IMG/VR virus record: IMGVR_UViG_3300044991_001466
Reading direction: 5' to 3' (one strand)
DNA from: a virus
Lineage: Duplodnaviria; Caudoviricetes
DNA: 64,000 nt
Shown: positions 15,959-57,460 of the stretch, in pieces
How positions within the stretch are numbered: the first letter of the stretch is position 1
Layout: each line of letters begins with the position of its first letter
Notes under the pieces: model-generated
The model's database searches: none
What the model was told of the DNA's origin: nothing
Seen by the model: the letters and a program-made list of their open reading frames with translations, nothing else
Position numbers and translations under genes: made by a program

Positions 15959-16900
15959 ATGGAAAAAAAATATTATACAAAACAACAAATATTGGAAGAT
16001 AAACAACCGTTAAATGAAGAAGGTTGGTTTACATTAGAAAACACGTTAATGGCTTTAGGATTTGTTCCTGTTATTGGTGAGATTGCCGACTTTGCACTTA
16101 TTATTTATTATTTAAAAAAAGGTCAGAACTTATATGCCGCATTGATGTGTATAGCACTATTTCCCGTTGTAGGTGATTTAATTGCTAAACCATTTATTAA
16201 ATTATTAAAATTAGGTAAAGAAGGTAATTTAGCACTTAAAGGTGGTGTTGAAATGACTGAGTATCTTGCTAAAAATCCACAAATGGCGGCTAAGGCTGCT
16301 GAAATGGCAAAATACGCTACGTCACCAACCGCAGGAAAGGTTGTTGCTAGTGTCGCAAATGTCAATAAAGGTTGGGGGTTAGGTTTAAAGGGAGCTCTTG
16401 CGGAATTAGGTAGTATATTTGCTAAAGTAAAACCTGTTGGTGCAATTAGTGCTGGTGTTGGTGCTAAAGTTGCAGGGTCAACATTTAAAACAGGATTTAA
16501 AGGATATTATCAAGGTGAAAGAATTGCACAATATGCGGTTAAAAATGGTATGAAACCAGAAGGGTTTATAAAAAATTGGTATATACCATACATGTCGAGA
16601 TTGGATAGGAAAAATTCATTTAGAAAATTTATAATTGCTAATAATTTATTAGCAGTATTTGGAATACCGTCATTAACAACATTTGAAGAAAAAGTTATGA
16701 ATGATGAGAAATTTAGGGAAAAATTGGCTAATAACCCAGCAATGAGTGAATACATTGCATCAAACACAACACCCGATGTTGCGGCACAAGTAACAAACAA
16801 ACCTGCAGGTTCAGAAGGTGTTGGTGATAAAGCGGCAAATTTAGTTGGAGGTACAATAGGATTAGGAATTATTAAGAGAATTGCTTCAACTATTGTCTAA
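15959..16900 (+). CDS. Probable virion/ejected protein with pre-toxin TG-like helical hairpin
   Basis: LGFVPVIGEIAD ... IALFPVVGD repeat; Gly/Ala-rich amphipathic helices. Confidence 0.55.
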   Translation: MEKKYYTKQQILEDKQPLNEEGWFTLENTLMALGFVPVIGEIADFALIIYYLKKGQNLYAALMCIALFPVVGDLIAKPFIKLLKLGKEGNLALKGGVEMTEYLAKNPQMAAKAAEMAKYATSPTAGKVVASVANVNKGWGLGLKGALAELGSIFAKVKPVGAISAGVGAKVAGSTFKTGFKGYYQGERIAQYAVKNGMKPEGFIKNWYIPYMSRLDRKNSFRKFIIANNLLAVFGIPSLTTFEEKVMNDEKFREKLANNPAMSEYIASNTTPDVAAQVTNKPAGSEGVGDKAANLVGGTIGLGIIKRIASTIV

Positions 16901-16918
16901 AACAAGATATTTATATTC

Positions 16919-17020
16919 AGAGTTTGATTGGTTTGGTCGCCATTAAACGATAATACTTATAAACGAAAAGGAGGTGTTTTAAATCTCGACAAAGGAGCTC
17001 TAAAGGCTCTTTTGTTCGTT
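16919..17020 (+). ncRNA. Candidate small RNA E1 containing a 12-nt complement of the Bacteroidota anti-Shine-Dalgarno
   Basis: Follows late motif ATATTTATATTC (16907-16918); AAAGGAGGTGTT at 16967-16978; 10-bp hairpin acaaaggagc/gctcttttgt; no ATG; shares three blocks with 45171-45205. Confidence 0.45.
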
Positions 17021-17045
17021 AATAGACTTTCCATATTAAAAATAT

Positions 17046-17074
17046 AAAAAAAGGTCCTTAAAAAGGACCTTTTG
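17046..17074 (-). terminator. Intrinsic terminator of tmRNA (bidirectional)
   Basis: aaggtcct/aggacctt inverted repeat flanked by A and T tracts. Confidence 0.75.
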
Positions 17075-17468
17075 TGGAGATGACGGGACTCGAACCCGTG
17101 TCTTTCCGGTTCAACAATAAATGACTACACGTTTATTCAATTAGTTCTTAATTGACAAATAGAAGGTTAATATCAGGAAACCTACAATACTGTTCCTAAC
17201 CGGATTTTCAAGAGCCGTCAAGTTTGCTCCAACACTCTGGGGTTATGTTCCACCGAAGGGACTTCTGTTCCTAGGTTATATGTCCATCGACCCGATTGTA
17301 GTTTCGCCTTAGGCTACTGCTACGTTAGAAGTTGCAAGTAAACCTGCAATTTCCATGTTTGTGTAAACGTTTCCGTTTGAAATTTTCCACCGTAGATTTA
17401 AGTCATAGATGAAGTCTGACTACGTGCCATTTATCCCTGATACCTGAAATCAATTCCATGGCATCCCC
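17075..17468 (-). ncRNA. ssrA: tmRNA
   Basis: 5' GGGGATG pairs with 3' CATCTCC-A (G3:U70 alanine determinant); T-arm CGGG-TTCGAGT-CCCG; internal tag ORF. Confidence 0.93.
17309..17374 (-). other. tmRNA tag reading frame GNVYTNMEIAGLLATSNVAVA*
   Basis: Open 21-codon frame ending in VAVA-TAA after tttcaaac; resume codon inferred. Confidence 0.7.
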
Positions 17469-18485: not shown

Positions 18486-19215
18486 TTATTTTACCTTCAA
18501 CTTCTTCTAAGTCAACTATGATTGGTTTATTTGATGGTTCATATCTTTCCGTACAAATTGATGCATTAACATAAAGAGTTTCTCTATTATAAACCGCACC
18601 ATAAGCTCCGTGGATATGTCCAAATACATGTAATAATGGTTTTAATCTATTTTCTAATTGATGTCTTAATAATTCACAACCCACGTTCATATCCCCTTGT
18701 CTCCAATTACTTACAAAATCTCTAATCTCATTTGGTGGTCCGTGTGTAATTAGTACATCAGTATCATCAGGAATCATATCCCATTTAGTTTTAAGTTCAT
18801 CACCCATTCTTGGTAAGTTAAAAGCCCAATCATAAAAATTTGGTTGCCAAGGACTTCCGTAGATTTTAATTGGTCTTGAGAATTCAGGACTATTTATTAC
18901 AATAAATTCATCCTGTAAGTAAAATACATTCGATTCTACTAAATTATCAAAACTCATTAAATCATTTAACCAATCATAATCACCTCTATGATGAGGTTCA
19001 TCGACTTTTTCAAAACAAAAATCGTGATTACCTGCAATGAATATTTTATATTGAAAATCATCAATATTTTGAAACCAATGTACAAAATTGGTAACATCTT
19101 TCTCACCTCCTTTATTTGAAATGTCCCCTGAATGTATCAACACATCACCTTTGGGGATTGGGTGGGACATTAGGTCCTGAAGACTATGCGTGTCTGATAA
19201 GCAGATTATTCTCAT
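18463..19215 (-). CDS. Calcineurin-like metallophosphoesterase
   Basis: SDTH, HSGD, AGNHD, THGPP, FGHIH motifs. Confidence 0.9.
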   Translation of the reverse strand: MRIICLSDTHSLQDLMSHPIPKGDVLIHSGDISNKGGEKDVTNFVHWFQNIDDFQYKIFIAGNHDFCFEKVDEPHHRGDYDWLNDLMSFDNLVESNVFYLQDEFIVINSPEFSRPIKIYGSPWQPNFYDWAFNLPRMGDELKTKWDMIPDDTDVLITHGPPNEIRDFVSNWRQGDMNVGCELLRHQLENRLKPLLHVFGHIHGAYGAVYNRETLYVNASICTERYEPSNKPIIVDLEEVEGKIIATYVEE

Positions 19216-19892: not shown

Positions 19893-20815
19893 GGTTTTTC
19901 TTTAGGCCGAACGGTTTTAAAACGTTCCGATTCCACCACTTTGTTTTACTAAACAAAGAAAATAAAACACTGAGAATACATGTCTTAATGAGAATCTTTT
20001 AAACGGATTATTGTTTCCCGTTTGTTTCCACTACCTTTTGAGTAGTAACCCTCAGCGGCGGTCAATTAGATTAACCAATCCTAAAGTCATCAGATACTCT
20101 TTTAATACTCATTACTCTTCGAGATTGCCATCCCAATTAAACCTTATGAGTTTAGAGAACTTTTTTAAAAATCATATTGGGATTGAGTCCCTTTATGGCC
20201 GTGAACCCCTCACGACTAAGTAGCCACCTGTCTCCAATGACTGACGAACACTTTTTCTTTTATTTTTTTAGTTTTCACCATTGAAAGTAAAAGTTTGGTT
20301 TGCAGATTAGGAAAGTAGCGGTTCGTCGACCAGCCAAGCCACCTTTTGAGCGACTCGATACTAAACTACTCTCTAAGACATCCCTGCCTTCATATTTTTG
20401 GTTTCCTTCAGAATTAAACCCTTGGTAGAGTTTAATTAAGGATGATAACAGCACCACCTGTTTTCCACCATACCTTTCGGTTTTAAAGATACCATTATAT
20501 TGAACAACACAATTATAAGGTTGGAGACCTTATTTCTTGTAATAGTTCTACAAGTTATTCTTATTGTTCTTCCGAACTCAGTCAAACGACCTGCATCGCT
20601 TGACCACCAAACCACTTTCCCTACAGTGTTACCCTCAGTACTTAAGGTTCGATGATACCTTGCTTGCCTACTCGAGTTCTATTTCTAAAACCGCAATCTC
20701 ATTCAACCAAATGAAATTACTTTATCCCACTTTCATGGTTTATTTTGTTGACCATAGGCGGCCAATATTTTTAATTCAAAGAACTTTTTCTTTCGATAAA
20801 ACCACCTTTGTGATT
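19865..20815 (-). ncRNA. Large (~950 nt) structured non-coding RNA, GOLLD-like candidate
   Basis: No credible ORF, GC-richer than flanks, many hairpins, two identical UCAAAAG loops, TATATTTG promoter at 20823-20830, terminator at 3' end; family assignment not verified. Confidence 0.7.
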
Positions 20816-28861: not shown

Positions 28862-28878
28862 AATTCTTATTTTTAGAG

Positions 28879-28952
28879 TGGACCAGATAGGAATCGAACC
28901 TATTACCTTCACATTATGAGTGTGCCGCTCTAACCTAGTGAGCTACAAGTCC
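28879..28952 (-). tRNA. tRNA with CAT anticodon (Ile2 or elongator Met)
   Basis: Full cloverleaf; loop CTCATAA; A73; CCA not encoded. Confidence 0.9.
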
Positions 28953-28962
28953 AAAATTTACG

Positions 28963-29036
28963 TAATCCCGTTTGGATTCGAACCAAAGACCCACATCTTA
29001 GAAGGATGTTGCTCTATCCAACTGAGCTACGGAACC
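28963..29036 (-). tRNA. tRNA-Arg(TCT)
   Basis: Cloverleaf; ACATC-CTTCTAA-GATGT. Confidence 0.92.
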
Positions 29037-29076
29037 AAAATTAACACTATCGTCTTTGAAAGTTTTTATTTAATCG

Positions 29077-29325
29077 TTATGCCTTACGGCTTATTGTTAT
29101 TTTACTCTCAAGTTTATCTAAACGTGAATCCAATACACGATAAACATCGTTCATTGCATTTTCACGTTCTCTGTTTTGATTTTCAATCTCTCTTCCGAGA
29201 CATTGTTCTACTTCTCTAATTTCTTTGTTTAGTTTATTAACCTTAACAAAGGCAATAACCGCAACTACCGCAACTGCGATAACCACAACTATTGACATTC
29301 CTAAAATAAATGATAATATATCCAT
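29077..29325 (-). CDS. Small TM plus coiled-coil protein
   Basis: Likely start MDILSF at 29325. Confidence 0.55.
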   Translation of the reverse strand: MDILSFILGMSIVVVIAVAVVAVIAFVKVNKLNKEIREVEQCLGREIENQNRERENAMNDVYRVLDSRLDKLESKITISRKA

Positions 29326-29381
29326 ATTAATTTTCTCCTTTATTTTCAAAGAACGATAGTGTTGTAATAAAATATAACAAA

Positions 29382-29411
29382 AAAAACCCGAATAAAAAAA
29401 TTCGGGTTTTT
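29382..29411. terminator. Bidirectional intrinsic terminator downstream of tRNA-Ser
   Basis: aaaaacccgaa/ttcgggttttt inverted repeat. Confidence 0.7.
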
Positions 29412-29416
29412 CTGTT

Positions 29417-29507
29417 TGGCGGAGAGAGTAGGATTCGAACCCACGGGCCAGTTTCCCGGCCTCCTGATTTCAAGTCAGGTGCAATAGACCAACTCTACCA
29501 TCTCTCC
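29417..29507 (-). tRNA. tRNA-Ser(TGA)
   Basis: Cloverleaf with long variable arm; CCTGA-CTTGAAA-TCAGG; G73 and encoded CCA. Confidence 0.95.
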
Positions 29508-29626
29508 AATTTTCCCGTTTTTTCCTCACATTTAGCCCAATCAACAGTGAGACATTGATTGGATTTTGATCATAGAAGCTTATAAGGTTTCCCCATTAAG
29601 CCGTTACCACGGGCAAACTAAATCAG

Positions 29627-29700
29627 CGGACTAGACGAGACTCGAACTCGCGACCTTCGGCGTGACAAGCCGACATTCTAACCAACTGAACTACCAATCC
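29627..29700 (-). tRNA. tRNA-Asp(GTC), canonical
   Basis: TCGGC-TTGTCAC-GCCGA; G73. Confidence 0.94.
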
Positions 29701-44886: not shown

Positions 44887-45069
44887 TTATTTTACAACTG
44901 CGCTGTCTGCTGGAATTTCCCCAGCATTTCCTGTTTCGGGAAGTGAAGTAGAAGTTGTATCGGCTTGAACCGAAGTTGAGTCAGTTGTTTGAGTTGCGGT
45001 TGACTCTGAACCACAAGCTGATAGTGTAAGTGCTACACCAAGAGCCAAAATAAATGTTACTTTTTTCAT
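44887..45069 (-). CDS. Small lipoprotein
   Basis: Start MKKVTF at 45069; lipobox LSAC; Ser/Thr-rich. Confidence 0.7.
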   Translation of the reverse strand: MKKVTFILALGVALTLSACGSESTATQTTDSTSVQADTTSTSLPETGNAGEIPADSAVVK

Positions 45070-45114: not shown

Positions 45115-45216
45115 AAAAAACCCCAACGAGATGTCGGGGTTTAAGGTCTTTGGGTGGGTTCAACCCCACTTACTTATTAAAAAAACGAAAAGGTAATCGA
45201 CAAAGAGAACCTTCAA
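45115..45216 (-). ncRNA. Candidate small RNA E2, complementary to E1
   Basis: Late motif ATATTTATATTC on the minus strand at 45217-45228; outer stem aaggt..ctttg/caaagacctt; inner gtggg/cccac; terminator hairpin 45118-45142 with U tract. Confidence 0.55.
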
Positions 45217-45251
45217 GAATATAAATATATATGTTTTTACAAAAAAACAAA

Positions 45252-56425: not shown

Positions 56426-57172
56426 ATGAACAAATTCGGAACGATAAAATCAAAAATGTTAACTAAAATAACTGAATCTTATTCTAAACAAAATAAGAAT
56501 GAAGTTAAAGATATGTTAAACACAATTAAAGAAAACAAAGCATTTAAAGAAATGTATTTGTTTTATGAAGAAATTGAGAATAAATATTTCGAGGATAAAG
56601 AGATTGCAAAATTATATGTTGAGGGATTAAATACATATTTTGGTCAACCAATGGGTAATTGGAATGATTTAAATGTATTTTGTGAATCTCTACATGATAA
56701 ATTGGGTAATATTGAAATTGAAACAAATGAATTATATGAGTCTTTAGATATATTATCCGAAAAAGATTCATTATCAAATATTGAAAAAAAGGTTATTGCA
56801 AAAAAGAAATTAGTAGAACATTTAACAACTAAAAAAGAAATTAACGAGTCTCAAGAGACTAAATTTGTCGCAAACGAAAATTTATTACACGCTGTTTTAG
56901 CAAACAATTTTAATGTACTTTATACTAACACACTTTCTGAAGAACAAAAAGTTGAATTAAAAACAATACTTGATTTATCAAGTGAAGATTTAGAAAACAA
57001 AACGTCTGAATTAAAAGAATCAATTTTAAATCAAATTGGTAATATTATAAATGAATCTAAAGATTCTGAAATGGTAACCAAATTATCTAAAGTAAAAGAT
57101 GAGGTACTAAAAAAGGAAACCTCCAAAATTAATTATTACAGATTAACTGAATTAAAAAATGGTCTTAACTAA
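56426..57172 (+). CDS. Head-region hypothetical protein
   Basis: ORF 248 aa between portal and bS21. Confidence 0.65.
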   Translation: MNKFGTIKSKMLTKITESYSKQNKNEVKDMLNTIKENKAFKEMYLFYEEIENKYFEDKEIAKLYVEGLNTYFGQPMGNWNDLNVFCESLHDKLGNIEIETNELYESLDILSEKDSLSNIEKKVIAKKKLVEHLTTKKEINESQETKFVANENLLHAVLANNFNVLYTNTLSEEQKVELKTILDLSSEDLENKTSELKESILNQIGNIINESKDSEMVTKLSKVKDEVLKKETSKINYYRLTELKNGLN

Positions 57173-57356
57173 GACCATTTTTCTTTTGTTGGACATATAT
57201 CGCCTTCAAAACCTCTTTTCTTTTATTCACTGAAGGTTTAACAAACTCCTGTCTTGCTCTTAATTTTTGAACTTGTTTAATTTTTTGAACTTTTTGTTTG
57301 TAAGTTCTTAAAGCACTTTCGAGGCTTTTTTCTTTTGTTACGTCAATTATTATCAT
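57165..57356 (-). CDS. rpsU: Ribosomal protein bS21
   Basis: SLESALRTYKQK...LRARQEFVKPSVNKR; TATATTTG promoter at 57375-57382. Confidence 0.9.
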   Translation of the reverse strand: MIIIDVTKEKSLESALRTYKQKVQKIKQVQKLRARQEFVKPSVNKRKEVLKAIYVQQKKNGLS

Positions 57357-57460
57357 ATTAATATAAGTATATCACAAATATATGAAAATATTTTTGGAAT
57401 TGTAAGATATTTTCTTTATAATTTATTAACACCATAAATAATATATAATGAAAAACCTTA

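Follow-up and report, generated by a model that had tools for sequence, protein, structure and literature searches.

What is the function of a short interval without open reading frame (ORF) that, in a phage of Bacteroidota, combines a late-type promoter motif with a long complement of the 16S rRNA 3' tail? The interval, hereafter named E1, lies within a window of 64,000 nucleotides, which is the whole stretch of DNA analysed here and to which all coordinates refer unless otherwise stated. The source record is 129.7 kb long, with a completeness estimated by CheckV at about 39%, and is a member of the large freshwater Bacteroidota phages that encode the ribosomal protein bS21. Such phage-encoded bS21 proteins have been described previously (Chen et al. 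2022, PMC9723584; Mizuno et al. 2019, PMC6375957). In Flavobacterium johnsoniae, bS21, bS18 and bS6 keep the 16S tail out of reach, Tyr54 of bS21 being the residue that redirects it, and Shine-Dalgarno (SD) sites are barely used in the phylum (McNutt et al. 2023, PMC9976891). The rpsU gene alone has an extended SD, forming 9-13 consecutive pairs (-14 to -21 kcal/mol), through which it is translated by bS21-free ribosomes, as the sole message that they read, and bS21 synthesis is in this way self-regulated; the same authors speculated that this loop is a counter-defence against bS21 phages (PMC9976891).

E1 is a discrete unit of the plus strand (16908-17021), situated between a 313-aa gene that ends at 16900 and a tmRNA gene of the minus strand. 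It is made of a promoter motif, a hairpin, an SD block, the pentamer AUCUC and a terminator hairpin. The late-type promoter motif, TATTTATA (16908-16915, plus strand), is embedded in the conserved string GATATTTATAT, and the transcript is predicted to start around 16919-16921. The first hairpin, P1 (16922-16948), has a covarying outer stem and an inner GGU/RCC that closes an invariant loop, UUGGUC (16933-16938). A conserved GAUAA and a variable linker come next (16949-16960). The ATAA of this stretch is invariant in A2, an alignment of 69 sequences, and the linker, which differs in length and sequence, pairs in one subgroup of A2 with the 5' AGAG (CAGAG/CUCUG, UAGAG/CUCUA). The SD block, AAACGAAAAGGAGGTGTT (16961-16978), resembles the leaders of rpsU genes and contains AAAGGAGGTGTT at 16967-16978. 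It is followed by the invariant AUCUC (16983-16987), which could form a weak 5-bp hairpin with GAGGU of the SD, and whose AUC occupies the place where a start codon is expected. The last element is the terminator hairpin P3 (16989-17015) and its U-rich tail UUCGUUA, which reaches 17021, where the conserved unit ends. A second, two-way terminator hairpin (17049-17073), between E1 and the convergent tmRNA gene, lies outside the conserved unit and differs in relatives.

Compared with shuffled sequence, folding was far more stable for the plus strand (z-score of -4.4), which was not the case for the minus strand (z-score of -2.0). The G-U pairs fit the plus strand only, which designates it as the strand of E1. 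The hairpin at the 3' end had been recognized in the initial annotation, but as a stem of 10 bp: it has 11 bp. This P3 stem-loop is GC-rich and is followed by a U-rich tract, UUUUGUUCGUU, as in intrinsic terminators, so that termination is predicted there; the U tract is interrupted, which explains why P3 is absent from a simple terminator scan. Taken with the promoter motif, these features suggest that E1 is most likely a small non-coding RNA, about 95-105 nt long and transcribed as a separate unit, with a late promoter and a terminator of its own. In a search of Rfam 15, E1 matched no family at the gathering threshold, and the best sub-threshold scores, 19 bits at most, were far below the cut-offs. 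An ordinary gene of the same record, outside the window, ends with a hairpin similar to P3 and its tail, GGGGTCGAAAGACCTCC followed by UUUUUUGUUUG (G000:C1:110860-110915). This phage thus uses hairpins of the P3 type as terminators in general.

The unit had initially been called an orphan. This is no longer tenable: two pattern scans of 2.9 million viral contigs yielded about 70 distinct E1 homologues in contigs of uncultured viruses, usually adjoining tmRNA or SmpB. Both scan patterns forced the P1 loop, including GGTTTGGTC, together with either the SD (first scan) or ATCTCG (second scan). As a consequence, the conservation of the P1 loop, of the SD and of ATCTCG is partly due to the way the sequences were gathered. 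The conservation of the SD was for this purpose read from the scan that did not have it in its pattern: GGAGGT is present in 53 of the 58 members, and the other five have GGGGGT, GGAGGG or GGAGGA. This degree of conservation, obtained without forcing, indicates that the SD block is under selection; a block not kept in relatives was one of the outcomes that the initial annotation had named as fatal to its proposal. The pentamer AUCUC is invariant in alignments A1 and A2, ATCTCG having belonged to the second search pattern and not to the first. Its pairing with the SD is possible in 98% of cases, but without covariation.

Both hairpins are maintained by compensatory changes. For P1, 94.6% of the cells of A2 are paired and 7 of the 10 pairs show changes on both sides; the U-G pair 19/26, found in 48 of the 69 sequences, is compatible with the plus strand only. 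The P1 loop and its closing pairs are invariant in the 69 sequences, but GGTTTGGTC was set in both search patterns. For P3, 98.2% of the cells are paired and 5 of the 9 pairs have changed on both sides; variants such as GGGTCTTCGGACC, GGGGTCCTAAAGACCTC, GAGGCGCAAGCCTC and GGAGCTCTAAAGGCTC are encountered. The covariation score of P1 and P3 together is 0.232, versus 0.171 in shuffled alignments (none of 500 reaches 0.232), and it falls to 0.093 or less when the 3' partners are slid. A putative long-range helix, P2 (AACGAA/UUCGUU), shows only one-sided, wobble-compatible changes in a region where the alignment of the A-run is ambiguous. The 5' arm of P1 also bears on an identity with the 5' end of 16S rRNA that had been noticed initially. 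The 10-mer in question, AGAGTTTGAT, is indeed present at 16919-16928, but the meaning given to it does not hold: it occurs a second time in the window (58145, minus strand) and is replaced in relatives by AGAGTCGTG, AGAGTCCAC, AGATTCAAATC and others. Since it is the 5' arm of a covarying stem and is not itself conserved, the likeness is attributed to chance, and mimicry of the 16S 5' end was rejected.

 The protein encoded upstream of E1 has 160 relatives. In contigs where the identity of this flanking protein is no more than 80-91%, hardly a base of E1 differs between the promoter and ...TTTGTTCGTT, and past this point similarity ends abruptly, giving way to an SmpB gene in some relatives and to different tmRNA ends in others. 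Near-identity next to a less conserved protein, together with such an abrupt end, places the conservation of E1 beyond chance. One relative at 49% protein identity (L013) retains E1 with compensatory changes in both hairpins, and in another (L010) E1 is absent and a plain terminator is found at its position. A covariance model built from A2, whose E-values are rough, detected one strong copy in each of five phage records. Weak additional matches, considered as possible second copies, proved to be ordinary terminators. With the same model, E1 was not found in 151 sampled Bacteroidota genomes. A blastn search against 50,697 phage records returned no match, an exact 20-mer pattern found nothing in the viral contigs, and the flanking protein used as sole query recovered no viral locus. 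The complement of the invariant P1 loop is found nowhere else in the record. A full-text search of the open-access literature did not find the description of such an RNA, and a text search of Chen et al. (PMC9723584) found no mention of non-coding RNA, tmRNA or untranslated region. E1 is an undescribed structured RNA family.

The initial annotation had taken the motif in front of the unit for a late one, in agreement with its distribution in the phage. Dozens of genes on both strands have TATTTATA, in their own orientation, 7-46 nt ahead of their ATG, and the genes for the large terminase, portal and head maturation protease are among them; in E1, the motif is directed into an ORF-free stretch. 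Of 68 distinct family members, to which no promoter filter was applied, 67 have TATTTAT at 18-23 nt ahead of the P1 loop, and the 68th core, devoid of promoter motif, is a chance match inside a gene. The T4 late promoter TATAAATA has TATTTATA as its reverse complement, but the working orientation here is that of TATTTATA.

Three side observations concern this motif. Over the whole record, many late genes, terminase and portal included, have it as close as 11-13 nt to their ATG (52765, 54594, 57901 in the window, and many others). If transcription starts a few bases past TATTTATA, as at T4 late promoters, late mRNAs would be leaderless or nearly so. A near-consensus version, TACTTATA, is placed 13 nt upstream of the ATG of the phage bS21 gene (region 57357-57400, minus strand). 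Finally, a segment hereafter named E2 (45115-45228, minus strand) carries the same late motif, behind which about 100 nt include two hairpins and a strong terminator, CCCCGACATCTCGTTGGGG followed by U6. It is located upstream of a lipoprotein gene starting at 45069 (minus strand), and could be either another small RNA or an attenuator-bearing leader.

The central element of E1 is its SD block. The 12-nt complement of the 16S tail described in the initial annotation is confirmed: AAAGGAGGTGTT (16967-16978, plus strand) is exactly complementary to the Bacteroidota 16S tail ...AACACCUCCUUU, is unique in the 64-kb window, and constitutes the longest 16S-tail complement of the whole 129.7-kb record. 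In the window, 12 consecutive base pairs can thus be formed with the 16S 3' tail (nt 1532-1544), for a threshold set at 9 or more. Across the family, 60 of 69 members form 12-15 consecutive Watson-Crick pairs with natural 16S tails, and the pairing energy with the tail averages -22.9 kcal/mol, with a range of -19.1 to -27.6. In predicted folds, half of the SD is paired with the invariant AUCUC, and freeing the block from the E1 fold would cost only about 4 kcal/mol. The second-best SD-like string, AAAGGAGGTG (19102-19113, minus strand), is a coding coincidence, internal to a metallophosphoesterase gene in which it encodes K-G-G-E.

Phage genes themselves do not have such sites. As anticipated in the initial annotation, their leaders are A-rich (48% A) and devoid of SD, GGAGG being found at -22 to -3 in none of 143 predicted genes. 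No SD was seen upstream of the phage bS21 gene of the window, nor in front of any of the 20 phage bS21 genes examined. The absence of a start codon behind the SD of E1, also noticed initially, extends to the whole family: ATG, GTG or TTG at 4-13 nt after the SD core is found in 0 of 69 members, window included. The description of E1 as a stand-alone ORF-free small RNA unit, with a late motif and, as its core, a conserved single-stranded complement of the 16S tail, agrees with what is seen across the family.

We then compared this block with the rpsU leaders of 63 Bacteroidota genomes for which the 16S tail could be typed (host loci L350-L408). Host leaders read ...AACGA(A/G)AGGAGGTGTC..., and the commonest context before their SD, ACGAAA or ACGAGA, is the context of E1 (AACGAAA(A)GGAGGU), so that hosts and E1 share ACGAAA or ACGAGA followed by GGRGGT(G/A)T. 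As the ACGAAA context lies outside of the 16S complement, this likeness is not explained by pairing with 16S. Rare variants are also common to E1 and host leaders, namely AUGAAAGG, and GGAGGUUGU with one extra U. Host rpsU pairing runs are at most 12 bp in the sampled genomes, a length that the pairing of E1 with 16S equals or exceeds. In energy too, E1 is level with the published rpsU values or surpasses them.

The base following the SD core is of particular interest. The two 16S variants at position 1533, C and U, are both common. In genomes with a 16S tail ending in ...GGAACACCUCCUUU (C-type), G follows GGRGGU in 20 of 24 rpsU leaders, and in those with ...GGAAUACCUCCUUU (U-type), which by record title are Chitinophagales, Sphingobacteriales and Saprospiraceae, A follows in 19 of 19. 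In E1, the base after GGAGGU is A in about 60% of members and G in about 40%, and never a pyrimidine. The dimorphism of E1 agrees with the two 16S variants, an agreement that is suggestive only. It could reflect mere tolerance, because no mutation is commoner than A-to-G, and because G can pair with both 16S variants. On the tree of phage bS21 proteins, which is poorly resolved, the A/G state of E1 changed at least 2-4 times and is scattered within the phage clade. In the G-type members, window included, four A's face UUUC of C-type 16S tails, leaving an A-C mismatch on the 5' side. Among U-type 16S genes, about 45% continue with CCUCCUUUUU instead of CCUCCUUUCU, which constitutes a second tail variant.

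E1 can be set against the extended-SD initiation region of rpsU known from Bacteroidia (Jha et al. 2021, PMC7797042; McNutt et al. 2023, PMC9976891). Both have 9-13 or more bases complementary to 16S nt 1532-1544 in an ACGA(A/G)AGGAGGU(G/A)U context, with, after GGAGGU, a purine that follows the 16S variant in hosts and would do so in E1, and both are the only strong SD of a genome that avoids SD sites. Unlike rpsU leaders, E1 has neither start codon nor ORF, is surrounded by a phage-encoded late promoter, a terminator and a conserved flanking hairpin, and is 40 kb away from a phage bS21 gene that lacks an SD; its complementarity is also usually longer (12-15 nt). Given the likeness in leader context, variants and pairing, the most fitting description of E1 is that of a mimic of the rpsU initiation region that has no ORF and possibly derives from a host rpsU leader.

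The phage bS21 gene (57165-57356, minus strand; PF01165, 38.2 bits) is the proposed functional partner of E1. Its product keeps Tyr54, as do all 20 phage bS21 proteins examined, and phage bS21 proteins group in a single clade, which is well supported and is placed next to the bS21 of U-type hosts (Chitinophagales/Saprospiraceae-like). A bS21 gene is present in 20 of the 36 viral records that bear E1, including all seven that are at least 70% complete, and the E1 records in which it is missing are fragments with a completeness of 54% or less. This matches the presence of E1 in bS21-encoding phages put forward initially, and may only reflect shared ancestry within one phage clade. Conversely, the long bS21 contigs examined for an absence of E1 all stop before the expected position of E1. 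In its immediate vicinity, E1 faces a full-length, convergent phage tmRNA gene (17072-17468, minus strand; ARAGORN; Rfam RF00023, 81 bits). More than 20 related loci have a tmRNA at 18-76 nt downstream of E1, and in others an SmpB gene takes this place. The upstream gene varies, and the convergent tmRNA or SmpB is the most constant neighbour.

We propose the following scenario, in which we infer the transcription of E1, its binding to ribosomes and its effect on rpsU. E1 would be made late, from its own promoter, and ended by its own terminator hairpin. Its core copies the translation initiation region of the host rpsU gene, without start codon or ORF. In Bacteroidota, where bS21, bS18 and bS6 normally bury the 16S tail, such a site is accessible only to bS21-free ribosomes, and this is what the host exploits to make bS21 anew. 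Late in infection, E1 would pair with the exposed 16S tail of bS21-free 30S subunits and out-compete the host rpsU mRNA, keeping these subunits in an unproductive dead-end complex, in which the invariant AUC would be at start-codon distance. The host would thereby fail to renew its bS21, which would instead be provided by the phage from its SD-less gene. The initial annotation had imagined a capture of 30S subunits; the likeness of E1 to rpsU leaders points rather to a competition with rpsU autoregulation (PMC9976891) than to a general 30S capture. That E1 is a late mimic of the rpsU initiation region, binding bS21-free 30S subunits and blocking the resupply of host bS21, appears to us slightly better than an even bet. 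The extended version, in which E1 captures this ribosome subpopulation by rpsU mimicry, disables bS21 resupply, and phage bS21 then occupies the ribosomes, is more tentative, and we would place it somewhat short of even. The invariant P1 loop and GAUAA are not accounted for by a decoy, and may bind a protein.

Other explanations have to be considered. The layout of E1, with its own promoter, a 5' hairpin, a conserved single-stranded stretch and a terminator hairpin, is typical of small RNAs, and E1 could be an ordinary base-pairing RNA, whose purine-rich seed AAACGAAAAGGAGGUGUU would target CU-rich mRNAs of the phage or the host, or E2, and not the ribosome. E2 contains CCUUUUCGUUU and CUUUGUCGA, both complementary to E1. 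However, over 12-15 nt the seed follows the 16S tail, its Bacteroidota-specific part GAA(C/U)A included, and it agrees with host rpsU leaders as well. No other complementary RNA of the cell should come close to 16S rRNA in abundance. The predicted E1:E2 duplex ranks only about 12th-16th in energy among 7626 windows of the same record, and the local alignment of E1 with E2 is not significant, 43 of 500 shuffles being as good. An E1/E2 antisense pair, supported neither by local alignment nor by the genome-wide duplex background, was discarded, and we consider an ordinary small RNA unlikely. A protein-binding RNA would explain the parts left aside by 16S pairing, i.e. the invariant UUGGUC loop of P1, GAUAA and AUCUC. 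The SD-like block and the P1 loop would then be binding sites, for instance for phage bS21 (E1 serving as chaperone or store), for bS1 or for a phage translational repressor, and both the co-occurrence with bS21 and the location of E1 in a translation-related island of tmRNA, SmpB, GOLLD and tRNAs go in this direction. Yet a protein site needs neither an exact complementarity of 12-15 nt to the 16S tail nor a dimorphism that mirrors the 16S variants, and a protein partner was indicated by none of the tests made, so that this alternative is judged quite unlikely.

Two alternatives remain. Its SD might be the real ribosome binding site of a tiny or non-AUG frame, for instance one that starts at the AUC of AUCUC: 47 of 69 members have this AUC at 8 nt past the GGRGG core (range 6-12), a spacing that recalls a start codon, and in the window the frame AUC UCG ACA AAG GAG CUC UAA would encode 6 residues. 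Against this, the usual start codons are missing at SD spacing in 69 of 69 members, and SD sites are barely used in the host phylum (PMC9976891). The spacer between the SD core and AUCUC varies from 6 to 12 nt, so that no reading frame is kept; the AUC frame differs in length and content among members, and it crosses P3, where changes compensate each other for pairing. A 39-aa frame with a TTG start (16928-17047) was also discarded, as it has no family match, is interrupted by stops in L013, and has its C-terminus in non-homologous sequence. Neither the TTG nor the AUC frame is conserved, and indels are not multiples of three. The translated non-AUG micro-ORF that the initial annotation had mentioned as a competing explanation for the SD is for these reasons very unlikely. 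Lastly, E1 might only act in cis, as a 3' untranslated region with a terminator or insulator, or be a functionless captured piece of an rpsU leader, since it sits between convergent units and P3 resembles other terminators of the phage. But the upstream gene differs across genomes when the promoter motif of E1 stays at a fixed distance; P1, GAUAA, the SD block and AUCUC are conserved beyond the needs of a terminator and far better than the flanking protein gene; and one relative manages with a plain terminator at the same place. We regard a purely cis element as highly improbable.

Mimicry of the rpsU initiation region by E1 has partial precedents. The 6S RNA mimics an open promoter and sequesters RNA polymerase, and sponges of the CsrB type carry SD-like GGA motifs. 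Like them, E1 would be a small stable RNA that titrates a machine by imitating its nucleic-acid ligand, but it would be directed at the 16S 3' tail, in a subpopulation of ribosomes, and not at RNA polymerase or CsrA, and it has no likeness to these RNAs in sequence or structure. Nor are Bacteroidota known for CsrA systems. In the archaeon Haloferax volcanii, a tRNA-derived fragment binds the small subunit and competes with mRNA, as part of a cellular stress response. E1 would similarly reduce translation by occupying the place where mRNA docks on the small subunit; unlike this fragment, which does not act via SD and anti-SD, E1 is phage-encoded and built around an extended SD. A further parallel is phage bS21 itself: E1 comes from the same phage group, would likewise be expressed late, and would act on the same step of translation.

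The scenario touches two open questions, namely why Bacteroidota keep a hidden anti-SD, and why many aquatic phages carry bS21. An ORF-less phage copy of the rpsU site is a concrete candidate for a phage answer to the rpsU loop. If this were true, no natural RNA decoy directed against the anti-Shine-Dalgarno sequence would precede E1, and it would represent a second, RNA-based arm of phage control over ribosome composition.

E1 also adds a structured RNA family to the RNA island of this phage, made of tmRNA, GOLLD and tRNAs. A full-length GOLLD RNA (19967-20373, minus strand; RF02032, 298.8 bits) is found 2.5 kb from the tmRNA gene, and four tRNAs (28878-29700, minus strand) belong to the same island of RNA genes. 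In close relatives, a gene for a 145-aa SmpB is inserted between E1 and the tmRNA gene. With SmpB and tmRNA together, this phage group carries a whole trans-translation module. The tag of the phage tmRNA, as read by ARAGORN, is ATSNVAVA*, unlike the usual ...ALAA ending.
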